A stretch of DNA of 64,000 nt. Source: an uncultured Eubacteriales bacterium (GTDB lineage: Bacteria; Bacillota; Clostridia; Lachnospirales; Lachnospiraceae). Below are positions 8,722-37,917 of the stretch, one piece after another. Each line of letters begins with the position of its first letter. Within the stretch, counting starts at the first letter, position 1. Location: positions 10,155 through 74,154 of the forward strand of contig ONKC01000003.1 of NCBI GenBank assembly GCA_900318295.1. Direction: 5' to 3'. Both the position numbers and the translations under genes were made by a program. The notes under the pieces are model-generated. The model was not told where the DNA came from. It saw only the letters and a program-made list of their open reading frames with translations, and searched no databases.

Positions 8722-8750
8722 TTGACACTCACCTATACATGTGATATGAT
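8722..8750 (+). promoter_or_regulatory. SigA promoter of purF
   Basis: TTGACA-N17-(TG)TATGAT. Confidence 0.85.
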
Positions 8751-8760
8751 ACATAGCGTT

Positions 8761-8806
8761 GAGGCAAAGGCGTCTCGGAGAAATCCGGGGCGCCTTTTAC
8801 TATTTT
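8761..8806 (+). ncRNA. Leader: ANTAR-type hairpin overlapping an intrinsic terminator (copy 1)
   Basis: GAGGC-AAAGGC-GTCTC hairpin is mutually exclusive with the 14-bp stem AAAGGCGTCTCGGA-gaaa-TCCGGGGCGCCTTT plus T-tract. Confidence 0.8.
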
Positions 8807-10349: not shown

Positions 10350-10378
10350 TTGACATTATTATTCATTTGTGTTATGAT
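10350..10378 (+). promoter_or_regulatory. SigA promoter of amt-glnK
   Basis: TTGACA-N17-(TG)TATGAT. Confidence 0.85.
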
Positions 10379-10388
10379 ACGTTTTGTT

Positions 10389-10434
10389 GAGGCAAGGGCG
10401 TCTCGGTTTTGTAACCGGGACGCCCTTTGTTTTT
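10389..10434 (+). ncRNA. Leader: ANTAR-type hairpin overlapping an intrinsic terminator (copy 2)
   Basis: GAGGC-AAGGGC-GTCTC. Terminator AAGGGCGTCTCGGTT-ttgt-AACCGGGACGCCCTT followed by TGTTTTT. Confidence 0.8.
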
Positions 10435-10462
10435 ATAAAAAATAGAAATGGAGGATAGGTTT

Positions 10463-12229
10463 ATGGAAGAAGTATTGGAGCTGATGGACGGGAAACTATT
10501 TGCAGTATGGTTCCTCATCGGTGCTGCTCTCGTCTTCTGGATGCAGGCGGGATTTGCGATGGTGGAGTCAGGATTTGCCAGGGCAAAAAATGCCGGCAAT
10601 ATCCTCATGAAGAACCTTATGGATTTTTGTATCGGGTGTGTGGTTTTTATCCTGATCGGTTTCGGTCTCCTTTTGGGAGAAGACATGGTGGGACTTATCG
10701 GAAAGCCCGGGCTTGATATTTTTACAGCGTATGCGGATTTTGATTGGTCAAACTTCGTGTTCAACCTTGTGTTCTGCGCGACTACAGCGACCATCGTATC
10801 CGGAGCTATGGCAGAGCGTACAAAGTTTTTGAGCTACTGCGTATACTCCGCTGTCATCTCGGCTTTGATCTATCCGATCGAGGCTCACTGGATCTGGGGA
10901 GGCGGCTGGCTTGCTCAGATGGGATTCCATGATTTTGCAGGGTCATGTGCGATCCATATGGTGGGTGGTATCGCAGCTTTAGTCGGAGCGATCATGGTCG
11001 GACCGCGTATCGGAAAGTTTGAGAGAGATAAGTCGGGAAAGGTTATCAAGGTAAATGCCTTCCCGGGACATAACCTTGTTATCGGAGCTTTGGGTGTGTT
11101 CATCCTGTGGCTCGGCTGGTATGGATTCAACGGTGCAGCTTGTACTACTGTTGAGCAGCTTGCATCTGTATTTGTTACGACTACCATCGCGCCTTCTGTT
11201 GCGACTGTGGTATGTATGGTCTTTACCTGGATCAGATACGGTAAGCCGGATGTGTCGATGTGTCTGAACGCATCTCTGGCAGGACTTGTAGCTATCACCG
11301 CTCCATGTGATGTGACTGATGCATCGGGTGCTATCGCTATCGGAGCTATCTCAGGACTTTTAGTGATCTTCGGAGTATGGCTTCTTGATTACAAGCTTCA
11401 TGTAGATGATCCGGTAGGTGCCGTAGCAGTTCATATGATGAACGGTATCTGGGGAACTATCGCAACCGGACTTTTTGCTACATCAAGCGCACCGGGCTTT
11501 GAGCTTGCAGGTATCAAGGAAGGTCTTTTCTACGGAGGAGGCTTTGATCAGCTCGGTATCCAGTTGGTTGGATTTGCGGCAGTAGCTGCCTGGGCAGCGG
11601 TCGGTATGCTTATCGTATTTGCGATCATCAAGGCTATCTTCGGACTTAGAGTAAGTGAGGAAGAGGAGCTCGAAGGACTCGATCTCACCGAGCATGGTTT
11701 GGCAAGTGCATATTCAGGCTTTTCTATCATGGATGTATCAACAGGTGCTATGTCAGCAAACGAGAACACAAACCTCGGTGTGGCTGCATATGAGGAAGCA
11801 AGTGAGGCGATGAGAAACGCCGCAGTTCCGGTAGAGAATGTAGCCAAAGAGCTCGAGGGAACTATACCTGATTCAGGTATCTACAAGGTTGTCATCATCA
11901 CCAAGCTGTCACGGTATGATAAGATGAAGAGAGCGCTGAACACTCTCGGTGTGACAGGTATCACGGTAACACAGGTCAGCGGTTGCGGTATCCAAAAAGG
12001 TGCCGGCGAGATGTACCGTGGAGTCGAGATGGACATGACACTTTTACCAAAGATCAAACTGGAGGTAGTAGTCAGCGGTATCCCTGTTGACAGCGTCATC
12101 GAGACCGCAAAGAAAACTCTTTACACCGGTAAGATCGGTGACGGAAAGATCTTTGTATATCCTGTAAACAGAGTCGTAAAGATCAGAACCGGAGAGGAAG
12201 ATTATGCTGCACTTCAGGATGTAGAATAA
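10463..12229 (+). CDS. amt: Ammonium transporter fused to a C-terminal PII (GlnK-like) domain
   Basis: Amt motifs 'MQAGFAMVESG', 'HDFAGS', 'DDPVGAVAVH' (twin His). PII motifs 'EMYRG', 'LLPKIK', 'TGKIGDGKIF', 'RTGE'. Start at ATG 10463 after GGAGG. Confidence 0.93.
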   Translation: MEEVLELMDGKLFAVWFLIGAALVFWMQAGFAMVESGFARAKNAGNILMKNLMDFCIGCVVFILIGFGLLLGEDMVGLIGKPGLDIFTAYADFDWSNFVFNLVFCATTATIVSGAMAERTKFLSYCVYSAVISALIYPIEAHWIWGGGWLAQMGFHDFAGSCAIHMVGGIAALVGAIMVGPRIGKFERDKSGKVIKVNAFPGHNLVIGALGVFILWLGWYGFNGAACTTVEQLASVFVTTTIAPSVATVVCMVFTWIRYGKPDVSMCLNASLAGLVAITAPCDVTDASGAIAIGAISGLLVIFGVWLLDYKLHVDDPVGAVAVHMMNGIWGTIATGLFATSSAPGFELAGIKEGLFYGGGFDQLGIQLVGFAAVAAWAAVGMLIVFAIIKAIFGLRVSEEEELEGLDLTEHGLASAYSGFSIMDVSTGAMSANENTNLGVAAYEEASEAMRNAAVPVENVAKELEGTIPDSGIYKVVIITKLSRYDKMKRALNTLGVTGITVTQVSGCGIQKGAGEMYRGVEMDMTLLPKIKLEVVVSGIPVDSVIETAKKTLYTGKIGDGKIFVYPVNRVVKIRTGEEDYAALQDVE

Positions 12230-15800: not shown

Positions 15801-15829
15801 TTGACAAGTTTCTAAAAATATGATATGAT
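15801..15829 (+). promoter_or_regulatory. SigA promoter of asnB-glnN-gltBD
   Basis: TTGACA-N17-(TG)TATGAT. Confidence 0.85.
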
Positions 15830-15839
15830 GCGTTGCAGT

Positions 15840-15888
15840 GAGGCAAAGGCGTCTCAGAGGAAACTCTGGGACGTCTTTGTCTTTCTTT
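15840..15888 (+). ncRNA. Leader: ANTAR-type hairpin overlapping an intrinsic terminator (copy 3)
   Basis: GAGGC-AAAGGC-GTCTC. Terminator AAAGGCGTCTCAGAG-gaaa-CTCTGGGACGTCTTT followed by GTCTTTCTTT. Confidence 0.8.
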
Positions 15889-17683: not shown

Positions 17684-19792
17684 ATGATTGAAGCTAAAAA
17701 GTTACCCGAGGAATACGGAAGTTTGGTTTTCGGCGATAAGGTGATGCGCGAGCGTCTGCCGAAGGACGTTTATAAGGCGGTCCACAAGACGATCGTCAGC
17801 GGGACTCACCTTGAGCTCGATGTGGCAAACGCAGTTGCGGTTGCGATGAAGGAGTGGGCGATCGAAAACGGTGCTACTCATTATACACATTGGTTCCAGC
17901 CGATGACAGGACTTACCGCGGAGAAGCACGACAGCTTTATCTCACCGGAAGGTGACGGAAGTGTGATCATGGAGTTTTCAGGAAAGGAGCTTGTAAAGGG
18001 CGAGCCTGATGCATCGAGCTTTCCTTCAGGAGGACTTCGTGCAACCTTCGAGGCAAGAGGATATACGGCATGGGATCCGTCATCGCCGGCATTTATCAAG
18101 GACGGGTCGCTTTACATCCCGACTGCCTTTTGCTCATACGGCGGAGAGGCACTTGATAAAAAGACACCGCTTCTTCGTTCGATGGAGGCTCTGTCAAAGG
18201 AAGCAGTAAAAATGATGAAGCTGCTCGGATATGAAGATGTAAACAGAGTGAATACAACAATAGGGTCTGAGCAGGAGTATTTTTTAATAGATAAAGATGA
18301 CTATATGAGAAGAAAGGATCTTCTTTTTACCGGACGTACACTTATCGGCGCTCCGGCGACCAAAGGTCAGGAGATGGAGGATCACTACTTCGGTGTGATC
18401 AAGCCTAAGGTTTCAGCCTTCATGCATGATCTGGATGAGGAGCTTTGGAAGCTCGGTATCCCGGCTAAAACAAAGCACAACGAGGTCGCTCCGTCTCAGC
18501 ACGAGATGGCACCGGTATTTGAGACAGCAAACGTCGCAGTCGATCACAACCAGCTGACGATGGAGGTCATGAAAAAAGTTGCCGACAAGCACGGTTATGC
18601 ATGCCTCCTTCATGAGAAGCCTTTCGAGGGTATCAACGGATCAGGTAAGCACAACAACTGGTCAATCTGCACCGATACGGGGATCAACCTTTTGGATCCG
18701 GGCAAGCATCCGGATGAGAACATCCCGTTCCTCATCACACTGATCGCAGTCATCGCGGCAGTAGATGAGTACGCACCGCTTCTTCGTCTGTCCGTGGCAA
18801 GTGCAGGAAACGACCACAGACTCGGAGCAAACGAGGCACCGCCGGCAGTTATCTCAATCTTTGTCGGAGATGAGTTGACCAAGGTACTTGACAGCATCAG
18901 AAGCGGAAAGAGCTTCAAGGGTGCAGGAAAAGAAAAAATGGAGATGGGTGCACAGGTACTTCCGCACATCACCAAAGATAATACAGATCGTAACCGTACA
19001 TCACCGTTCGCATTTACCGGAAACAAGTTCGAGTTCCGTATGCCGGGTTCATCGGTATCTGTTGCAAACGCAAACATCGTTTTGAATACAGCAGTGGCAG
19101 AGGTCATCTCACGCATGACCGAAAAGCTTTCAGGGCTCGCCGGAGACGAACTTCACGACGCACTGACCGCCCTTTTGAAAGAGGAGCTTATAGCGCATGA
19201 AAAAGTACTGTTTAACGGAAACGGTTACACTGATGAGTGGATCGCTGAAGCAGAAAAGAGAGGTCTCCCGAACCTGAAAGCTCTTCCGGATGCTATGCCT
19301 CATTGGATTGGAGAGCCGTCTGTAGAGCTTTTCACCAAGCATCAGATCTTTACAAAAGAGGAGCTTGATTCGAGATATGAGATCCTGCTTGAGAACTATT
19401 CGAAGTCGATAAATATCGAAGCACTCACGATGCAGGAGATGGTTCGAAAAGATCTGACGAGCGGCATCATCGCATATGAACAGGATCTGACCAAGGAGAT
19501 ACTTCAGAAGGAACAGGCACTTCCGGGAGCAAAGGCAGCGCTTGAAGGAAACATCTTAAAGACACTTGATGAGGCATCCTCACAGATCGCCGTAAAGCTT
19601 GAGACACTTAAAAAGGATACGCTTGAAGCAGAGAGTATCGAAGATCCTCTGGCACAGGCTGATTTCTATGAGAAAAAAGTGCTTGCGGATATGGATGAAT
19701 TGAGAGTATATACCGATCAGGCAGAGGCTTTGATCCCGGATGAATACCTGACCTATCCGACATACGGACAGATGCTGTTTTCACTTAGATAA
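17684..19792 (+). CDS. glnN: Glutamine synthetase type III
   Basis: 702 aa. 'ATHYTHWFQP', 'GEPDASSFPSGG', 'FEARGYTAWD', 'HNEVAPSQHE', 'NGSGKHNNWS', 'DRNRTSPFAFTGNKFEFR'. Confidence 0.95.
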   Translation: MIEAKKLPEEYGSLVFGDKVMRERLPKDVYKAVHKTIVSGTHLELDVANAVAVAMKEWAIENGATHYTHWFQPMTGLTAEKHDSFISPEGDGSVIMEFSGKELVKGEPDASSFPSGGLRATFEARGYTAWDPSSPAFIKDGSLYIPTAFCSYGGEALDKKTPLLRSMEALSKEAVKMMKLLGYEDVNRVNTTIGSEQEYFLIDKDDYMRRKDLLFTGRTLIGAPATKGQEMEDHYFGVIKPKVSAFMHDLDEELWKLGIPAKTKHNEVAPSQHEMAPVFETANVAVDHNQLTMEVMKKVADKHGYACLLHEKPFEGINGSGKHNNWSICTDTGINLLDPGKHPDENIPFLITLIAVIAAVDEYAPLLRLSVASAGNDHRLGANEAPPAVISIFVGDELTKVLDSIRSGKSFKGAGKEKMEMGAQVLPHITKDNTDRNRTSPFAFTGNKFEFRMPGSSVSVANANIVLNTAVAEVISRMTEKLSGLAGDELHDALTALLKEELIAHEKVLFNGNGYTDEWIAEAEKRGLPNLKALPDAMPHWIGEPSVELFTKHQIFTKEELDSRYEILLENYSKSINIEALTMQEMVRKDLTSGIIAYEQDLTKEILQKEQALPGAKAALEGNILKTLDEASSQIAVKLETLKKDTLEAESIEDPLAQADFYEKKVLADMDELRVYTDQAEALIPDEYLTYPTYGQMLFSLR

Positions 19793-19808
19793 AAATCAAA
19801 CTAAAATG

Positions 19809-19846
19809 CATGGAAGGGAACCGACCTCCTTAGGTTTCCTTCCATG
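19809..19846 (+). other. Intercistronic 14-bp hairpin between glnN and gltB (no U-tract)
   Basis: CATGGAAGGGAACC / GGTTTCCTTCCATG. Confidence 0.6.
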
Positions 19847-19872
19847 AATAATCTAAAAAAATGGTGATATAA

Positions 19873-24417: not shown

Positions 24418-24539
24418 CAGTTTCCGTTCGGAGGTCCGCTTGCGCCATTTCCGAGCGTAGCGGTGCACGGCTTGAGAATACCAAGCCTGCGCACCGACGC
24501 TCGCAAAGCCTCCTCACAAAAACTGTCATCAGAAACCTG
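24404..24539. repeat. About 135-bp nested imperfect palindrome (REP/MITE-like) overlapping the gltB stop codon
   Basis: Outer arms CAGGTTCTGACTGACAGTTT / AAACTGTCATCAGAAACCTG. Inner arms GAGCGT..GGTGC..GGCTTG / CAAGCC..GCACC..ACGCTC. Confidence 0.7.
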
Positions 24540-24589
24540 ATATACTGAGATTGAAAACTATATATGTACTTTTTTATAGGAGTGATAAC

Positions 24590-26056
24590 ATGGGTAAGAT
24601 AGGTGGTTTCCTGGAATACGACAGGAAGGAAAATAAAAGAATTGCACCGGGGGAGAGAATCAAAAATTTTCTCGAATTTTATGATATAAATGATGTCAAT
24701 GAGAGACGTTGTCAGGCGGCCAGATGTATGGACTGCGGAGTACCGTTTTGTCAATCGGCGATGAGCCTGGGCGGAATGGTGGTCGGATGTCCTTTGCACA
24801 ATCTGATCCCTGAGTGGAATGACGCTATTTTTAAAGAACAGGATAAGCATGCGCTTTCGAGACTTTTAAAGACGAATCCTTTTCCGGAGTTTACCGGCAG
24901 AGTTTGCCCGGCTCTCTGTGAGAAGGCTTGTATCAACGGTGAGCACGGTGAGAGTGTGACCGTACATGACAATGAAAAATATATCATTGAAACTGCTTAT
25001 AAAAATGGCTGGATGGAGCCGCGTATACCTAAGCACAGAAGCGGCAAAAAGGTTGCTGTGATCGGCAGCGGTCCGTCCGGACTCAGCACTGCCGATACGC
25101 TGAATAAAAGAGGTCATCAGGTCACGGTTTTTGAAAGAGAGGATCGTATTGGCGGACTTTTGATGTACGGTATCCCGAACATGAAACTCGATAAAAAGGT
25201 GATCTCGCGCAGAAAAAAACTCATGGAAGCAGAGGGGATTATTTTTAAGTGCGGGATAGATGTAGGTCGTGATATAAAGATCAATCAGCTTAAAAAAGAG
25301 TTCGATGCGATCGTGATGTGCTGCGGTGCCAAAAAGCCGAGACCTCTAAACGCAAAAGGAATAGAGGGTGTCAAGGGCGTAAGGTTTGCTGTGGATTTTT
25401 TGACCGATGTAACTAAAAACCTTTTAGCAGATGCACTTGATAAATCCGTAGCACCTTCCGTTAAAAATAAAAACGTGGTAGTAGTTGGCGGAGGTGATAC
25501 AGGAAATGATTGTATAGGAACCTCGATAAGACTCGGAGCAAAGAGTGTCACCGCTCTCGAGATGATGCCGAAGCCACCTGTGGAGCGTGCCGCAAATAAT
25601 CCCTGGCCGCAGTGGCCGAAGGTGTTAAAGACAGATTACGGCCATGAGGAGGCGATAGAAAAATACGGAGAGGATCCGCGTATTTTTGAAACTACCGTAA
25701 AAGAAGTGATTGCTGAAAAGGGTGTCATCAAAAAGATAGTTACGGTAAAGGTTAAGTTTGATAAAGGTCAGCTTAAAGAGGTCAAAGGTTCGGAGCAGAC
25801 TATCCCGTGTGATCTGCTTCTCATCGCTGCCGGATTTCTCGGAGCGCAGGAGTATCTTCCGAAGGCTGCAAAGGTGGAGCTTGCACCGAGAGGAAATGTT
25901 GCCACCGAACAAGACAGCTACAAAACGAACGTAGAGGGTATTTTTACGGCAGGAGACATGCACAGAGGACAGTCACTCGTGGTGTGGGCGATAGCCGAAG
26001 GAAAGGCCTGCGCAAGGGAGGTAGATGATTATTTGATGGGATATACAAATTTATAG
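24590..26056 (+). CDS. gltD: Glutamate synthase small subunit
   Basis: 'ARCMDCGVPFC', 'GCPLHN', 'VIGSGPSG', 'VVGGGDTGNDC', 'GDMHRGQSLVVWAIAEG'. ATG 24590 follows GGAGTGA. Confidence 0.95.
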   Translation: MGKIGGFLEYDRKENKRIAPGERIKNFLEFYDINDVNERRCQAARCMDCGVPFCQSAMSLGGMVVGCPLHNLIPEWNDAIFKEQDKHALSRLLKTNPFPEFTGRVCPALCEKACINGEHGESVTVHDNEKYIIETAYKNGWMEPRIPKHRSGKKVAVIGSGPSGLSTADTLNKRGHQVTVFEREDRIGGLLMYGIPNMKLDKKVISRRKKLMEAEGIIFKCGIDVGRDIKINQLKKEFDAIVMCCGAKKPRPLNAKGIEGVKGVRFAVDFLTDVTKNLLADALDKSVAPSVKNKNVVVVGGGDTGNDCIGTSIRLGAKSVTALEMMPKPPVERAANNPWPQWPKVLKTDYGHEEAIEKYGEDPRIFETTVKEVIAEKGVIKKIVTVKVKFDKGQLKEVKGSEQTIPCDLLLIAAGFLGAQEYLPKAAKVELAPRGNVATEQDSYKTNVEGIFTAGDMHRGQSLVVWAIAEGKACAREVDDYLMGYTNL

Positions 26057-26084
26057 TGACATATGTCATCAAGTGGTGTATAAT
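26056..26084 (+). promoter_or_regulatory. Promoter of carAB with a palindrome TGACATATGTCA over the -35
   Basis: GTGACA-N17-TATAAT. Perfect 12-bp palindrome at 26057-26068. Confidence 0.6.
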
Positions 26085-30337: not shown

Positions 30338-30418
30338 GTGAATCAGAGTGATACAGTGTATGGCAAAAGCTGCGTGCAGTCTTGATCCGGGCTGTGATGC
30401 ATGGAAAGGAAGGAAACT

Positions 30419-31588
30419 ATGACCTATACTAAAGAAGAGATAATGCAATACATGGAGGAGGAAGACGTTAAGTTTATACGTCTTATGTTCCGTGATGCAT
30501 TCGGCGTGCAGAAAAATATCTCGATAATGCCGACCGAGTTAAAAAAAGCTTTCGAGGGTGGCATAGGAATCAATGCGAGGAGAATCCCGGGCTTCGAAAG
30601 GAGTGAGACCGCGGAGCTCTATCTGGTGCCGGATCCCGAGACCATCACTGTGCTTCCGTGGAGACCGGAGAGCGGAAGGGTCGTCAGGATGTACTGCGAC
30701 GTGTGCGGTCCTGATCGTACACCTCAGAAAAATGACACGCGTGTGATGCTTAAAAATGCGATCGAGCATGCTAAAAAAGAGGGTATAGAGTTTAAGTTCG
30801 GATCAAAGTCTGAGTTCTATCTTTTCAAGCTTGATGACGAGGGAAACCGCACCGAGATCCCTTATGATGATGCCGGATATATGGATATCGCACCTCTCGA
30901 TATGGGTGAAAATATCCGTCGTGAGATATGTCTTACTATCGAGAGGATGGGGCTTCGTCCGGAGCGCTCGCACCATGAGCAGGGACCTGGTCAGAATGAG
31001 ATAGATTTCCATCACGGCGAGCCGCTGACGGCAGCGGATCAGATGTCTACTTTTATGATGGCGGTGCAGACTATCGCCGGGAGGAACGGATTGTATGCTG
31101 ACTTCTCACCGGTCCCTATAAAGGATATGCCCGGTAACGGTTATCATATAAACATGTACGCTTCGGATGCACAGGGTAATGATGTATGTCGATATGCGGC
31201 AGCGGGAATACTTGATAAGATTAGAGAGATCACTCTGTTTTTAAATCCGAGTGAAAACTCCTATCGCAGGTTCGGGACCAACACAGCGCCGGATCGTATA
31301 AACTGGACGGCAGAGGGCGAGACCTCACTTATGCATGTGTCTGAAAAACTCGGAGGAATAAGAGCTGAGCTTCGTTCGCCGGATGCTCTTTCTAATCCTT
31401 ATCTGGCTTACTCGATCCTTATCGAAGCGGGCCTGTATGGAATTAAAAATAAGCTCGAGCTGCCGGAAGAAACAGGTGATGAAAATCTCCTTCCGCAGTC
31501 ACTAAAAGAAGCGAGAGAAATCGCGGCAAAAAGTGAGTTTATAAAGAGTATTGTTTCTGAAGATATTTTTGATGAATATATGGGTTGA
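30419..31588 (+). CDS. Glutamine synthetase type I-fold protein, probably catalytically inactive
   Basis: Colinear with GSI ('VKFIRL', 'HHEQGPGQNEIDF', 'RAELRSPDALSNPYL'), but 'GPEPEF' reads 'GSKSEF', 'GYEAP' reads 'NTAP', 'NRSPLIRIP' reads 'GETSLMHVS'. The C-terminal tail is absent. Confidence 0.85.
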   Translation: MTYTKEEIMQYMEEEDVKFIRLMFRDAFGVQKNISIMPTELKKAFEGGIGINARRIPGFERSETAELYLVPDPETITVLPWRPESGRVVRMYCDVCGPDRTPQKNDTRVMLKNAIEHAKKEGIEFKFGSKSEFYLFKLDDEGNRTEIPYDDAGYMDIAPLDMGENIRREICLTIERMGLRPERSHHEQGPGQNEIDFHHGEPLTAADQMSTFMMAVQTIAGRNGLYADFSPVPIKDMPGNGYHINMYASDAQGNDVCRYAAAGILDKIREITLFLNPSENSYRRFGTNTAPDRINWTAEGETSLMHVSEKLGGIRAELRSPDALSNPYLAYSILIEAGLYGIKNKLELPEETGDENLLPQSLKEAREIAAKSEFIKSIVSEDIFDEYMG

Positions 31589-31594
31589 TAGTAT

Positions 31595-32179
31595 ATGGCT
31601 GATGGAAGCGTAAGACAACACGATATACTGATCGTCTCGTCAAACGAGAAGTTCAGTGACAGTGTGACGCGGGCTCTCTCGGACGGGAGATACCGCGATG
31701 TTGACGTGCGCAAAAGTGCTTCCGCAGCCCGCAGAGAACTCCTCGAAAAAAGCTATGATGTAGCTATGATAAACATGCCTCTTTCGGATGAGCCGGGAGT
31801 GGATCTCGCGATAGATATCGCATCGACTTATCCCACCGGAGTGCTGATAATAGCTTCCTCGGAGATCAGTGAAGACGTCGCGGAAAAGGTAACAGACGAC
31901 GGAATAATAGTGATCGCCAAGCCCGCTTCCGCACGCATCGTAAAGCGTGCTGTCAGGGTTTTATGTGCCCTCCTCGATAAGCTGAAAAAATCCGAAAAAA
32001 AAGTCCTCACTCTGGAGGAAAAGATGGAAGAGATCCGCATCGTAAATCGTGCGAAATGGAAGCTTATAGATGAGAAAAAAATGGGCGAAGATGAAGCCCA
32101 TCGCTACATCGGGAAGCTGGCGATGGATAAGTGCATCTCAAAAGGGGATGCTGCGAGAGAAATATTAGGAGGGATCTAA
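31595..32179 (+). CDS. ANTAR-domain antiterminator with a pseudo-receiver domain (NitR/EutV-like architecture)
   Basis: C-terminal ANTAR 'IVNRAKWKLI..KMGEDEAHRYIGKLAMDKCISKGDAAREIL'. Receiver has 'IVSS' in place of 'IVDD' and 'INMP' in place of 'D.MP'. Confidence 0.9.
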   Translation: MADGSVRQHDILIVSSNEKFSDSVTRALSDGRYRDVDVRKSASAARRELLEKSYDVAMINMPLSDEPGVDLAIDIASTYPTGVLIIASSEISEDVAEKVTDDGIIVIAKPASARIVKRAVRVLCALLDKLKKSEKKVLTLEEKMEEIRIVNRAKWKLIDEKKMGEDEAHRYIGKLAMDKCISKGDAAREILGGI

Positions 32180-32274: not shown

Positions 32275-32303
32275 TTGACAAAACCGCCTATTTGTGGTAT
32301 ATT
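32275..32303 (+). promoter_or_regulatory. SigA promoter of trpB2
   Basis: TTGACA-N17-TATATT. Confidence 0.7.
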
Positions 32304-32375
32304 TCCTTACATATTTATATGGTGTCACGGATGCCAGGAAAAATATTGAAGGGAAAATGATTGGAGGACAGTGAA

Positions 32376-33740
32376 ATGAGTGAAATACCTTACAAAATCT
32401 ATCTCGAAGAAAGTGAGATGCCAAAAGAGTGGTATAACGTACGTGCCGATATGAAAAATAAACCGGCACCGCTTCTTAACCCGGGCACGGGTCAGCCGCT
32501 TAATGCTGAGGAGCTCGGCGCGGTATTCTGCGATGAGCTGGTAGCTCAGGAGCTTGATAATGATACAGCATTTATCGAGATACCACAGGAGATCAGAGAT
32601 TTCTACAAGATGTATCGTCCGTCACCTTTGGTGCGTGCGTACTGTCTCGAGAAAAAGCTCGGCACTCCGGCAAAGATCTACTATAAGTTTGAGGGTAATA
32701 ATACAAGCGGTTCACATAAGTTAAACTCAGCTATCGCGCAGGCATACTATGCGAAGAAGCAGGGACTTAAGGGTGTGACCACAGAGACCGGAGCAGGCCA
32801 GTGGGGTACGGCACTTTCGATGGCATGTGCTTATCTTGATCTCGATTGTAAGGTTTACATGGTTAAGGTTTCATATGAGCAGAAGCCTTTTAGAAGAGAG
32901 GTTATGCGCACATATGGCGCGACAGTAACACCGTCACCGTCAGAGACGACAGAGGTTGGTAAAAAGATCCTCGCTGAGCACCCGGGTACGACAGGAAGTC
33001 TTGGATGTGCGATCTCAGAGGCTGTCGAGGTGGCAGGAAGAGATCCGGGATACAGATATGTGCTCGGTAGTGTACTTAACCAGGTGCTTTTGCATCAGTC
33101 AGTCATCGGTCTGGAGACCAAGGCTGCTCTTGATAAATACGGAATCAAACCGGACATCATCATCGGATGTGCAGGAGGCGGATCAAACCTCGGCGGACTG
33201 ATCTCCCCATTCATGGGAGAGAAGCTTCGCGGGGAGGCTGACTACCGCATCATCGCAGTAGAGCCGGCATCATGCCCGAGCTTCACACGCGGTACATATG
33301 CATATGACTTCTGCGATACAGGTATGATCTGTCCGCTTGCAAAAATGTATACACTGGGAAGTAGCTTCATCCCGAGTGCAAACCATGCCGGAGGACTTCG
33401 CTTCCACGGCATGAGCCCGACACTTTCACAGCTTTATCATGACGGATACATGGAGGCAACAAGTGTAGAGCAGACAGCAGTATTTGAGGCCGCTGAGCAG
33501 TTTGCAAGAGTCGAAGGAATCCTTCCTGCACCGGAGAGTTCACATGCTATCCGCGCTGCTATCGACGAGGCGCTCAAGTGCAAGGAGACCGGCGAGGAAA
33601 AGACCATCGTATTTGGTCTGACCGGAACAGGTTACTTCGATATGGTTGCTTATGAGAAGTTCAATAACGGTGAAATGAGTGATACAATTCCGACTGATGA
33701 GGAGATCGCAGCGAGCATCGCGAAGCTCCCGAAGGTCTGA
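32376..33740 (+). CDS. trpB: Stand-alone tryptophan synthase beta-like enzyme (TrpB2)
   Basis: PLP Lys motif 'SGSHKLNSA', 'TETGAGQWG', 'GGGSNLGG', 'HAGGLRFHG', 'PAPESSHA'. Long N-terminus typical of TrpB2. ATG 32376 follows GGAGG. Confidence 0.9.
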   Translation: MSEIPYKIYLEESEMPKEWYNVRADMKNKPAPLLNPGTGQPLNAEELGAVFCDELVAQELDNDTAFIEIPQEIRDFYKMYRPSPLVRAYCLEKKLGTPAKIYYKFEGNNTSGSHKLNSAIAQAYYAKKQGLKGVTTETGAGQWGTALSMACAYLDLDCKVYMVKVSYEQKPFRREVMRTYGATVTPSPSETTEVGKKILAEHPGTTGSLGCAISEAVEVAGRDPGYRYVLGSVLNQVLLHQSVIGLETKAALDKYGIKPDIIIGCAGGGSNLGGLISPFMGEKLRGEADYRIIAVEPASCPSFTRGTYAYDFCDTGMICPLAKMYTLGSSFIPSANHAGGLRFHGMSPTLSQLYHDGYMEATSVEQTAVFEAAEQFARVEGILPAPESSHAIRAAIDEALKCKETGEEKTIVFGLTGTGYFDMVAYEKFNNGEMSDTIPTDEEIAASIAKLPKV

Positions 33741-35631: not shown

Positions 35632-36150
35632 ATGGAAGAATCAACATTAAAAAAACGATGCATAAGCCTTTTTGTTGAGAACGAGATCGGTGTGCTCGCG
35701 TATATATCGGGACTTTTTTCAGGCAAGGGTTATAACCTTGATTCACTCACAGTAGGTACGACTCTTGATCCGACGATCTCGCGTATGACCATCACTCTTA
35801 CAAGTGATGATATGACCTTTGAGCAGATCAAAAAACAGCTCAACAGAAGTGTTCCCGTGATCAGGGTCGTAGACTTCGCCGGCGCGGATATTTTTATGAA
35901 AGAGCTGATGTATGTCAAGGTCATGGGATGTACCGATGAAGAGATGAAAAAGATCGCAAAGATCGCGGAAAAATATGATACGACTATCATTGATTGTGTA
36001 TCTGATTCCATGCTTATGGAGTGTTTGGATACCGAAAAAGACAACGATGCTCTACTTGAAAAATTAAAGAAATATTTCAACGGACGTATGGAGATAGTTC
36101 GCGGCGGAAGCGTAGCGATCGAGGCGCTGCAAGCCAAAAAGGAGCAGTAA
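35632..36150 (+). CDS. ilvN: Acetolactate synthase small (regulatory) subunit
   Basis: ACT domain 'VENEIGVLAYISGLFSGKGYNLDSLTVG', C-terminal 'EIVRGG'. Follows ilvB. Confidence 0.88.
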   Translation: MEESTLKKRCISLFVENEIGVLAYISGLFSGKGYNLDSLTVGTTLDPTISRMTITLTSDDMTFEQIKKQLNRSVPVIRVVDFAGADIFMKELMYVKVMGCTDEEMKKIAKIAEKYDTTIIDCVSDSMLMECLDTEKDNDALLEKLKKYFNGRMEIVRGGSVAIEALQAKKEQ

Positions 36151-37205
36151 TGTATCGTTTGTATGAGTGGACTGCGATAATGCTTTTGTGTCTGGCAGGG
36201 CTTGTCATGTCGGATAACTATGTTGTTCCTGTAGCTGTAGCCATAGGTCTGATCGCGGTGTCCACTGTAGTACATCTGCTCAGTAGGAGTATTTTTTCAG
36301 CTATTATTCTTTTTGTAGCCTGTGGAGTATGCGGATGGGTTCCGCTTGTGTTTTGCGGGTTGCCTGTGTTTATGTATGAAGCGATGCGGGAGGAAAGATG
36401 GTTTCTGGTCCTGCCATCGCTTCTTGTATTATTACATACGGATGCACTTGAGCCGGCGCAGTATATAGTTGCTTTGTCGGGCGCGGGAGTGTCAGTGCTT
36501 CTATACTATATGATGTCGAGGATCGAGGATTCCGTAGAAAAATACCACGTTCTGAGAGATGAGCTTGTAGAAAAAAATGCGATCCTGGAGAGTCAGAATC
36601 AAAGGCTTAAGGAGGCACAAAATAACGAAGTACATCTGGCTACGATGAAGGAGAGAAACCGCATCGCCAGAGAGATACATGACAATGTCGGACATATGCT
36701 TACGAGATCTCTTTTGCAGTCCGGTGCTCTTATGATAGCAAACAAGGATGAAAACCTGAAGGAGCCTTTGGAAGGATTAAATGCCACCCTGGATCAGGCG
36801 ATGACGAGCATACGTGAGAGTGTGCATGATCTGCATGATGAGTCGATAGATCTGCAAGCGGTGATCATCGAGAACTTAAAGACTGCCGAGCACAGGTTTA
36901 AGACCTCGTTTAGTTATGAGATAAAGGCCGGGCTTCCTACGTCGGTAAAACTATGTTTTGCCGGGATAGTAAAGGAAGCAGTATCAAATGCGGTAAAGCA
37001 TTCGAACGGTGATAAGATAGAGGTGACGGTCGGAGAAAAGCCGGGTGTATATGAGCTGATAATATCCGATAACGGCAAAGCCGGAGAGATAAGACAGACC
37101 GGGATCGGTCTGTCAAATATGCGCGATAGAGTCGGACAGCTGCAGGGACATATCGAGTTTATCACGGACAACGGTTTTGTTATCAGAGCAGGCATACCAA
37201 GGTAA
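36150..37205 (+). CDS. Membrane sensor histidine kinase (HisKA_3, NarL-type partner)
   Basis: 'ERNRIAREIHDNVGH', 'EAVSNAVKHS', 'DNG', 'GIGLSNMRDRV'. TM-rich N-terminus. TAATG overlap with ilvN. Confidence 0.9.
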   Translation: MYRLYEWTAIMLLCLAGLVMSDNYVVPVAVAIGLIAVSTVVHLLSRSIFSAIILFVACGVCGWVPLVFCGLPVFMYEAMREERWFLVLPSLLVLLHTDALEPAQYIVALSGAGVSVLLYYMMSRIEDSVEKYHVLRDELVEKNAILESQNQRLKEAQNNEVHLATMKERNRIAREIHDNVGHMLTRSLLQSGALMIANKDENLKEPLEGLNATLDQAMTSIRESVHDLHDESIDLQAVIIENLKTAEHRFKTSFSYEIKAGLPTSVKLCFAGIVKEAVSNAVKHSNGDKIEVTVGEKPGVYELIISDNGKAGEIRQTGIGLSNMRDRVGQLQGHIEFITDNGFVIRAGIPR

Positions 37206-37222
37206 AAAAATGGACGTGCCAT

Positions 37223-37301
37223 GCGCTCGCGCGGTCGGAGTATATATTCCTCGCTCGTCCTTATAAAGGACTCCTCGGAATATATCTCCTGCCGCGAGCG
37301 C
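37223..37301. repeat. 79-bp imperfect palindrome sitting on the 5' end of the response regulator gene
   Basis: GCGCTCGCG..GGAGTATATATTCC..GTCCTT-at-AAGGAC..GGAATATATCTCC..CGCGAGCGC. Confidence 0.8.
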
Positions 37302-37323
37302 GGGATGTAGGGACGATAAACTG

Positions 37324-37917
37324 GTGGCGCTGTCACTTAAGACGATACTTGAGAGTACGCCGGATATTGAGGTCGTGGCGATGGGCAGCTCAGGTGATGA
37401 GGCGATAGGTCTTTACAAGGAGCATAGGCCCGATGTCATGCTGATGGATATCCGGATGGAGGGTATGACTGGACTTGAAGCGGGGGAGATAATCCTCAAA
37501 GATTCACCTGAAGCTAGGCTTTTATACCTGACTACTTTTTCTGATGATGAGTATATCATCAAGGCTCTTGGTATGGGTGCAAAGGGATATATACTTAAGC
37601 AGGATTATGAGGGAATAGCTCCTGCTCTTACAGCTATTATGAACGGTCAGTCTGTCTTTGGAGACAGCGTCAGGGACAAGCTTCCAAACCTTATGAGAGA
37701 TAAAGATGAATTTGATTTTGCGGCCTATGATATAAGCGATAAGGAAAGAGAAATACTTGAGGCGGTCGCAACCGGAAAGAACAATAAAGAGATCGCTGAG
37801 CAACTGTATTTAAGTGAAGGTACTGTAAGAAACTATATAAGCTCTCTTCTTGATAAGCTAGAGCTCAGAGACAGGACTCAATTAGCGGTATTTTATTATA
37901 CTGAAATAAAAGGATAA
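37324..37917 (+). CDS. NarL/LuxR-family response regulator, N-terminally truncated (possible pseudogene)
   Basis: 'MDIRMEG' phospho-Asp, 'LTTF', 'GYILK', HTH 'NKEIAEQLYLSEGTVRNYIS'. The beta1 strand and its Met are missing, and GAC-GAT (DD) lies upstream of the GTG. Confidence 0.75.
   Translation: MALSLKTILESTPDIEVVAMGSSGDEAIGLYKEHRPDVMLMDIRMEGMTGLEAGEIILKDSPEARLLYLTTFSDDEYIIKALGMGAKGYILKQDYEGIAPALTAIMNGQSVFGDSVRDKLPNLMRDKDEFDFAAYDISDKEREILEAVATGKNNKEIAEQLYLSEGTVRNYISSLLDKLELRDRTQLAVFYYTEIKG

Follow-up and report, generated by a model that had tools for sequence, protein, structure and literature searches.

The window analysed here is a stretch of 64,000 nucleotides from contig ONKC01000003.1 of an uncultured rumen Lachnospiraceae bacterium, and it comprises a nitrogen-assimilation cluster whose genes all lie on the forward strand. 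One of these genes encodes a protein in which a receiver-like domain is joined to an ANTAR RNA-binding domain, and it directly follows a gene whose product resembles glutamine synthetase (GS). On balance, this ANTAR gene probably encodes a phosphorylation-independent, NitR-like antiterminator of the nitrogen regulon that is gated by its GS-like partner. More tentatively, it is quite possible that a GS pseudoenzyme serves as the cell's nitrogen (glutamine) receptor and gates, by direct binding, a kinase-less ANTAR antiterminator reading single-hexaloop leaders at the extreme 5' end of the transcripts for type III GS (GSIII), glutamate synthase (GOGAT), glutamate dehydrogenase (GDH), AmtB-PII and glutamine-dependent amidotransferases. 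These elements would then form a complete and undescribed circuit, on which hundreds of Clostridia species from the gut and rumen would rely instead of GlnR/TnrA or NtrBC.

Nitrogen control is poorly understood in the dominant Clostridia of the rumen and gut, and the locus bears on how they sense nitrogen. It provides a circuit that can be tested from end to end, with a candidate GS-like sensor, a non-phosphorylatable regulator, an RNA site of 16-20 nucleotides (nt) with its terminator, and a regulon.

A receiver domain devoid of its phosphorylation site

The ANTAR protein is made of a receiver (residues ~9-112), a coiled-coil helix (113-161) and an ANTAR domain (140-191). The latter is matched by Pfam ANTAR (PF03861) at 51.1 bits for a cut-off of 27.3, and residues 11-115 match Response_reg (PF00072) at 31.0 bits, barely over the cut-off of 30.2. 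An AlphaFold2 model (predicted local distance difference test, pLDDT, 86) displays a five-stranded receiver, a single long helix over residues 113-161 and a small helical ANTAR bundle at the C-terminus. The Pfam score and this helix bear out the view, expressed in the initial annotation of the sequence, that the coiled coil and the ANTAR domain are intact. The best full-length Foldseek matches are RNA-bound EutV (6ww6_B, template modelling (TM) score 0.80), AmiR (1qo0, TM 0.63-0.69) and Rv1626. By its ANTAR score and by the long coiled-coil helix that joins the receiver to the ANTAR domain, the protein resembles the receiver-ANTAR (REC-ANTAR) antiterminators. NCBIfam has no model for it, and the source annotations read only 'ANTAR domain-containing protein'.

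The residues of the receiver were mapped by alignment with Escherichia coli CheY and 119 database homologues, and the canonical positions are given below in CheY numbering. The acidic pocket D12-D13 is replaced by S15 and S16, the phospho-acceptor D57 by N60 within the motif 'AMINMPL', and the switch residues T87 and Y106 by A87 and V106. The lysine-proline pair K109-P110 ('AKP') is kept. The HMMER alignments to the solved receivers Rv1626 and DgcR give the same picture, with N60 under the phospho-aspartate and 'VSS' under 'IED'. The initial reading of 'SS' for 'DD', of an asparagine in 'INMP' and of a conserved 'AKP' is therefore correct.

As judged from these alignments, N60 is a family-wide trait and neither a chance substitution nor a sequencing artefact, because asparagine occupies the phospho-site in 117 of the 119 database homologues, down to ~45% identity, and in 88 of 89 related loci. 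S15 is found in 88 of the same 89. Among these relatives, one protein carries an aspartate at the phospho-site and one a threonine in place of S15. Conservation extends to other positions: S15, N60, P62, L63 and D65 of the receiver pocket are nearly or fully invariant, D55 and D65 are invariant, and in the ANTAR domain E165, A176 and M177 are invariant and H169 nearly so. D55 and D65 were considered as alternative phosphorylation sites and rejected; by the CheY alignment they would fall at ordinary receiver positions outside the pocket, at the 'PD..' start of strand beta3 and in the 'MP..DG' loop.

The protein lies, on these sequence grounds, outside the phosphorylation-dependent response regulators of the EutV and PdtaR/Rv1626 type, because the residues that define this type were tested and are missing: it has no acceptor aspartate, no D12/D13 pocket, no T87/Y106 pair and no adjacent kinase, and Lys109-Pro110 is the single defining feature retained. 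The proposal that the receiver cannot be phosphorylated is thereby upheld as far as sequence can tell, the acceptor, the acidic pair and the switch residues all being replaced throughout the family.

A conserved candidate partner with the fold of glutamine synthetase

In the window, six nucleotides separate the stop codon of the GS-like gene from the ATG of the ANTAR gene. Relatives were collected by scanning one genome per species, which yielded at least 547 loci, of which the best 80 were fetched. In each of the 80 loci with enough upstream DNA, the ANTAR gene is immediately preceded by a GS-like gene of the same orientation (median gap 35 nt). The pair is distributed over the Lachnospiraceae, the Oscillospiraceae/Ruminococcaceae, the Acutalibacteraceae and the Clostridiaceae (the latter represented by loci L080 and L081), and its surroundings vary from bacterial-type gltBD-carAB to archaeal-type split GOGAT, pyrG or gdhA. 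In locus L088, the pair stands alone as a two-gene unit between serS and gdhA. The circuit thus appears to be widespread, in hundreds of species of gut and rumen Clostridia. The genome record nearest to the window in the species scan, with 98% identity, is a metagenome-assembled genome of an uncultured member of the Lachnospiraceae, and the DNA of the window is present in bovine and sheep gut metagenomes.

The GS-like protein scores 260.1 bits against the TIGR00653 GlnA equivalog, below the cut-off of 429.15. Its catalytic residues were examined together with those of its counterparts by aligning 76 distinct partners to the Methanosarcina mazei GS, scoring D50', E129, E131, E212, E220, H269, R321, E327, R339, R344, E357 and R359 (Salmonella typhimurium numbering). 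The glutamate of the flap, E327, is a glutamate in none of the 76 partners; it is replaced by lysine (64), threonine (9), asparagine (2) or phenylalanine (1), always with a one-residue deletion. The other catalytic residues are mostly kept by the partners outside the clade of the window. Within this clade (the window, L007, L009-L012 and others), D50' is also replaced, by N or G, as is E129, a ligand of the n2 metal, by K, M, A or S; of the two arginines that bind the nucleotide, R339 has become E, G or S and R344 has become H. Two members of the clade, L010 and L011, come from the cultured Lachnospiraceae bacterium XBB2008 and Lachnospiraceae bacterium AC2029. The window protein itself has lost five catalytic residues (D50' to N, E129 to K, E327 to T, R339 to E and R344 to H) and retains E131, E212, E220, H269, R321, E357 and R359; this paralogue keeps the fold and most of the residues of the glutamate/glutamine site.

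Since D50', E129, R339 and R344 are lost in addition to the flap, the window protein is most unlikely to function as a ligase. Because of the TIGR00653 score and of these catalytic residues, the partner does not qualify, by sequence, as a bona fide type I GS. It is not a decaying pseudogene either: the gene is maintained, since open reading frames (ORFs) of 373-458 residues are intact in 77 loci. The working GS of the cluster is likely the GSIII encoded by glnN. In metabolic reconstructions of rumen and gut genomes, genes of this GS-like kind should be kept apart from the true glutamine synthetases. If the proposed role is true, the clade of the window would show how a trigger enzyme, represented by the flap-less but otherwise intact GS-like partners, degenerates to a dedicated sensor.

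The initial annotation had sought the input of the ANTAR protein in the upstream GS-like protein or in a small ligand. The first option has gained strong circumstantial support from the 80/80 adjacency, the isolated pair of L088, the loss of the flap in 76 of 76 partners and the four additional losses in the window clade; direct input of a small ligand to the ANTAR protein is a possible alternative to it.

Single-hexaloop leaders in front of nitrogen genes

Three leaders of common architecture precede purF, amtB-PII and asnB in the window (Table 1). From 5' to 3', the module consists of a sigma-A promoter (TTGACA-17-TATGAT), ~9 nt, the hairpin UGAGGC-AARGGC-GUCUC and a strong terminator, the 5' strand of which includes the loop and the 3' arm of the hexaloop hairpin. 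The terminators fold at -34 kcal/mol (z-score -6.4) for asnB, -29.5 kcal/mol (z -5.7) for amtB-PII and -26.3 kcal/mol (z -5.3) for purF. The 17-mer TGAGGCAARGGCGTCTC occurs three times in the window for 0.28 occurrences expected by chance. The first residue of the hexaloop AARGGC is A and the fourth is G, which gives it the A1/G4 signature by which ANTAR targets are recognized (PMC3369931). A hexaloop hairpin of this type, mutually exclusive with a terminator, is what the REC-ANTAR antiterminators recognize, and the leaders display it with one hexaloop. The asnB leader probably heads a unit composed of asnB, glnN, gltBD, carAB and the GS-like and ANTAR genes.

The same hairpin follows sigma-A promoters in distant Clostridia, with the stems TGAGC/GTTCA, AAGGC/GTCTT, GAAGC/GTTTC and GAGGC/GTCTC. 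In the window and its relatives, the genes found behind these leaders are GOGAT operons ending in the GS-like/ANTAR pair, the pair itself, GSIII, amtB-PII, gdhA, purA, purC, purF and asnB. The leader-bearing genes are thus a nitrogen regulon that includes the regulator's own operon. The reality of the stem was assessed by covariation on 33 distinct sequences whose sites had been picked by loop, closing pair and promoter only, in order to avoid circularity. The 7-bp stem is paired at 89.6%, a value reached by none of 500 shuffles (70.6% in shuffles). The covariation score is 0.58, as compared with 0.25 after shuffling, and sliding the partners never raises it above 0.17; three stem pairs show 10-16 double changes each. 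A G·U wobble beside the closing C-G pair (alignment columns 6 and 15; 15843/15852 in the window) is kept in 32 of the 33 variants. This pair is less stable than G-C, and its conservation may reflect a recognition feature or the need for the alternative pairing of the terminator.

The leader corresponds to no curated RNA family, since Rfam returned nothing at gathering score over the whole window; a permissive search of positions 8000-33000 produced chance-level matches only. A dual-hairpin model with a second (P1) hexaloop was examined and rejected. The promoter leaves ~2-9 nt before the hairpin, and the distal loop of the terminator is conserved neither in size nor in sequence. Transcription has to begin only a few nucleotides upstream of the hairpin, so there is room for one hexaloop only. 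This agrees with the crystal structure of EutV bound to RNA, whose authors have narrowed the definition of a minimal ANTAR site to one hexaloop (bioRxiv 10.1101/2020.09.27.315978). In that complex, G4 makes a stacking interaction with Tyr164 and a contact with Glu160, and the loop is plugged by Met172. Residues E165, H169 and M177 of the window protein would match EutV Glu160, Tyr164 and Met172, with the same +4/+12 spacing. In several relatives, two complete hexaloop-hairpin/terminator modules follow each other ~80 nt apart in one leader on the reverse strand: L031 (~1212 and 1140), L049 (2929 and 2851), L053 (5128 and 5040) and L081 (7475 and 7394). This arrangement suggests two successive antitermination checkpoints.

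Proposed mechanism

In the model proposed here, the free ANTAR protein, which like EutV and AmiR probably dimerizes through its coiled coil, would bind the 5'-proximal AARGGC hexaloop hairpin of the nascent leader RNA. Because the loop and the 3' arm of this hairpin constitute the 5' half of the terminator, binding would prevent the terminator from forming and RNA polymerase would read into the nitrogen-assimilation genes. The targets in the window would be purF, amtB-PII and the unit running from asnB through glnN (GSIII) and gltBD to the GS-like and ANTAR genes; as this unit includes the pair, the regulator would be autoregulated. Its activity would be set by the co-translated GS-like protein and would involve no kinase. 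The GS-like protein would report nitrogen status through its occupancy by glutamine and/or glutamate, ATP or 2-oxoglutarate, glutamine being the likeliest ligand. When nitrogen is plentiful, the ligand-loaded GS-like protein would sequester the antiterminator, and limitation would release it. Sequestration is proposed by analogy with AmiC-AmiR, NasS-NasT and the action of Bacillus subtilis GS on TnrA/GlnR; the identity of the ligand, the direction of control and the role of the ANTAR protein as the leader-binding factor are inferred.

Several points weigh against this model. Physical contact between the GS-like and ANTAR proteins is presumed, and strict synteny with short gaps would also be expected of genes that are merely co-regulated. 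The link between protein and leader is drawn from the ANTAR loop signature and from co-occurrence near the pair, and these leaders have one hexaloop where canonical ANTAR targets have two. The partners outside the window clade could be working ligases or 'trigger enzymes' and not pure sensors, because nearly all their catalytic residues except the flap are kept. A near-consensus promoter-like site lies directly upstream of carA (26056-26084, forward strand; GTGACA-17-TATAAT, 11 of 12 matches, with no hexaloop leader), so that carAB and the GS-like and ANTAR genes may have a second transcript that does not depend on the asnB leader. The single unit running from asnB to the ANTAR gene is putative. 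As to expression, the evidence comes from sparse Logan contigs of rumen metatranscriptomes. One contig (31559-31792) covers the end of the GS-like gene, with its stop codon, and the start of the ANTAR gene, and the GSIII gene has the highest contig depth of the stretch, part of it perhaps contributed by a related species. This support is thin, and carry-over of DNA is possible.

These reservations leave room for other explanations. It is rather unlikely, though by no means negligible, that the pseudo-receiver itself senses a small molecule, or that a constitutive protein is controlled through its autoregulated level, the GS-like protein being simply a co-expressed enzyme of the nitrogen regulon. 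The (near-)invariant S15, N60, P62, L63 and D65 could mark a ligand site, and the operon of the pair has its own leader, which makes feedback via protein level possible. The partners outside the window clade, which mostly keep their metal, ATP and glutamate ligands, the flap excepted, would also suit an enzyme. Against this, a dedicated GSIII is already in the cluster of the window, and the partner found there has lost five catalytic residues in an intact ORF. Co-regulation alone fails to account for an adjacency of 80/80 in varied contexts, including the isolated pair, and the precedents are controlled by partners: the pseudo-receiver protein AmiR by AmiC (PMC3369936) and the REC-ANTAR protein NasT by NasS (PMC3795266).

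Control in the opposite direction, or in both, would have the ANTAR protein modulate the GS-like protein while another factor reads the leaders. The assignment of the protein to the leaders is indeed deduced, and the two-way control between GS and TnrA, in which TnrA inhibits the GS of B. subtilis (PMC6316151), offers a precedent. This explanation is nonetheless improbable in view of an ANTAR domain that is intact and conserved (51 bits; E165, A176 and M177 invariant), of a leader loop bearing the ANTAR A1/G4 signature and of a GS-like protein with little catalytic machinery left to regulate in the window. Reverse or mutual control could possibly be an addition to gating by the partner. Continued regulation by phosphorylation, on another Asp, Ser or Thr residue and by an orphan kinase or acetyl phosphate, is the hardest to believe. 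In its favour are the retention of K109-P110 and of the receiver fold as a whole, the invariance of D55 and D65, and a histidine kinase encoded 4 kb downstream. Against it, the acceptor, both metal-binding aspartates and both switch residues are replaced family-wide, D55 and D65 seem to occupy ordinary positions outside the pocket, and the kinase is paired with a LuxR-type regulator of its own and lacks a conserved counterpart in the vicinity of the relatives.

Organization of the cluster

The features of the cluster and of its surroundings are collected in Table 1.

Table 1. Coordinates of the leaders, genes and codons discussed in the text, numbered from the first nucleotide of the window.
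Feature	Position	Strand	Details
purF leader	8722..8806	+	Promoter, hairpin 8760-8776 (loop AAAGGC), overlapping terminator
purF	8805 (start)	+	
amtB-PII leader	10350..10434	+	Promoter, hairpin 10388-10404 (loop AAGGGC), overlapping terminator
amtB-PII fusion	10448-12229	+	593 residues (Ammonium_transp + P-II)
Radical-SAM gene	14674 (start)	+	
asnB leader	15801..15888	+	TTGACA at 15801, -10 at 15824-15829, hairpin 15839-15855 (GAGGC-AAAGGC-GUCUC), overlapping terminator to 15888
asnB	15908 (start)	+	
glnN, type III glutamine synthetase (GSIII)	17684..19792	+	702 residues; GSIII_N, Gln-synt_C, Gln-synt_C-ter
gltB	19873 (start)	+	
gltD	24551-26056 (as listed)	+	TTG start
carA	26143 (start)	+	
carB	27158 (start)	+	
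GS-like partner	30401..31588	+	395 residues, GSI-alpha-type fold, degenerate catalytic residues; Gln-synt_N + Gln-synt_C
ANTAR antiterminator with pseudo-receiver	31595..32179	+	194 residues; ORF, Pfam, AlphaFold2, Foldseek
Codons S15-S16, replacing the CheY acidic pocket D12-D13	31637..31642	+	CheY alignment
Codon N60 (AAC), replacing the phospho-acceptor Asp57	31772..31774	+	CheY and homologue alignment
Codons K109-P110, receiver Lys-Pro retained	31919..31924	+	CheY alignment
Intrinsic terminator ending the operon directly after the ANTAR stop codon	32168..32190	+	10-bp stem, 6 GC pairs, then CCTTTTTTGT
HisKA_3 histidine kinase	36150-37205	+	Multi-pass membrane N-terminus; nearest kinase, 4 kb downstream of the ANTAR gene
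LuxR/NarL-type response regulator paired with the HisKA_3 kinase	37324-37917	+	Listed ORF starts with GTG, may be longer

The amtB-PII fusion is also present in the relatives L004-L006 and L012. The GltD protein probably begins at an ATG near 24590 ('MGKIGGFLEY'), which would make the gltB-gltD spacer longer than it looks from the list of ORFs. On the forward strand, the glnN-gltB (19793-19872) and gltB-gltD (24418-24550) spacers contain long GC-rich hairpins lacking a U tract, examples being CATGGAAGGGAACC...GGTTTCCTTCCATG and a structured spacer of 133 nt. These hairpins might be elements of RNA processing or stability within the operon. Beyond the operon terminator lie a gene for a TrpB-like (TrpB2, NF009057) pyridoxal phosphate enzyme (32275-33740, forward strand) and then ilvB and ilvN. 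The TrpB-like gene has its own near-consensus promoter (TTGACA-17-TATATT with TG).

The absence of an adjacent kinase, also noted initially, holds for the operon itself, and no kinase was found to be conserved beside the ANTAR genes in the neighbourhoods of the related loci. The HisKA_3 kinase was considered as a source of input and rejected. It is separated from the ANTAR gene by the terminator and three biosynthetic genes, and it forms with its own LuxR-type regulator (36150-37917) an ordinary two-component system unrelated to the ANTAR gene.

Comparison with known systems

The literature searched contained no paper on a GS-like/ANTAR partnership, and no description of a sensor partner with the GS fold, of a family-wide asparagine at the phospho-site or of a regulon of single-hexaloop 5' leaders. 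The order of the genes is not new: it has been described as glnA-nitR in Clostridium saccharobutylicum (PMC6316151) and also occurs in C. thermocellum (PMC4676874). NitR of C. saccharobutylicum NCP262 (Stutz et al. 2007, as summarized in PMC6316151) is an ANTAR regulator encoded in a glnA-nitR-gltAB cluster; it induces the GS/GOGAT genes when nitrogen is limiting, and is proposed to do so by antitermination. Like nitR, the ANTAR gene of the window immediately follows a gene of the type I GS kind, beside GOGAT, in a nitrogen cluster of Clostridia; this likeness is one of gene layout, as described (PMC6316151, PMC4676874). No description of the signal input, the phospho-site status or the RNA target of NitR was found in the literature searched. 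To our knowledge, NitR has been known since 2007 with neither a signal input nor an RNA target. Its upstream glnA encodes a working GS of ~444 residues that reportedly complements E. coli. In contrast, the upstream gene of the window encodes 395 residues, five catalytic residues are lost, and catalysis is probably carried out by GSIII.

The same layout is found in C. thermocellum, with the ANTAR gene Clo1313_2030, the type I GS gene 2031 and the GOGAT genes 2032-2036 (PMC4676874, PMC9888227), and deletion of this GS 'deregulates nitrogen metabolism' according to the title of Rydzak et al. 2017, cited in PMC9888227. By analogy, the mechanism proposed above fits both the facts available on NitR and the C. 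thermocellum layout. In the deletion strain, nitrogen-assimilation genes are reportedly up although glutamine is high. Gating of an ANTAR antiterminator by a GS-like partner may explain the deregulation of nitrogen genes, as worded in that title, upon a deletion used in biofuel strain engineering.

Two systems controlled by a partner come closest in principle. AmiR does not rely on phosphorylation, and its ligand-binding partner AmiC sequesters the antiterminator (PMC3369936). The window protein resembles AmiR of Pseudomonas aeruginosa (1QO0) in combining a pseudo-receiver, a coiled coil and an ANTAR domain (TM 0.63-0.69) with a co-encoded partner, but this partner has the fold of glutamine synthetase and is presumably oligomeric, whereas AmiC has a periplasmic-binding-protein fold. 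Moreover, the likely signal is nitrogen status and not amides, and sequence identity is ~17-18% only. In the NasT-NasS system of Paracoccus denitrificans, the sensor holds the REC-ANTAR protein until the signal releases it, and a nitrogen-assimilation operon is antiterminated (PMC3795266). A REC-ANTAR protein, a co-encoded candidate sensor and nitrogen-assimilation targets are again found in the window. NasS, however, is an NrtA-like sensor that binds nitrate or nitrite and acts on the nas leader; the GS-like partner has another fold and presumably another ligand. The window pair therefore shares with the partner-controlled ANTAR systems a non-phosphorylated receiver and a candidate sensor encoded in the same operon, and departs from them in having no AmiC- or NrtA-like sensor fold.

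The best structural match is provided by EutV of the Enterococcus faecalis EutV-EutW system (6WW6, 6WSH; TM 0.80), in which an A1/G4 hexaloop hairpin overlaps the terminator as it does here. Phosphorylation of EutV by EutW is needed for dimerization and RNA binding (PMC3369931), whereas the window protein has an asparagine at the acceptor position and no kinase in its operon; the leaders of the window moreover contain one hexaloop in place of the two of the eut leaders. If they are true targets, they would show that the ANTAR site with one hexaloop, as predicted by the structure of EutV on RNA, exists in nature.

In B. subtilis, finally, GS controls TnrA and GlnR by direct protein contact (PMC6316151). 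A protein of the GSI-alpha type acting as nitrogen sensor on a regulator of nitrogen genes is what is proposed here as well. The B. subtilis sensor is a working GS and its regulators are DNA-binding proteins of the MerR type, whereas the GS-like protein of the window is apparently catalytically dead and its regulator is predicted to bind RNA. If gating by this protein is true, a third kind of partner would be added to the paradigm established by AmiC and NasS.

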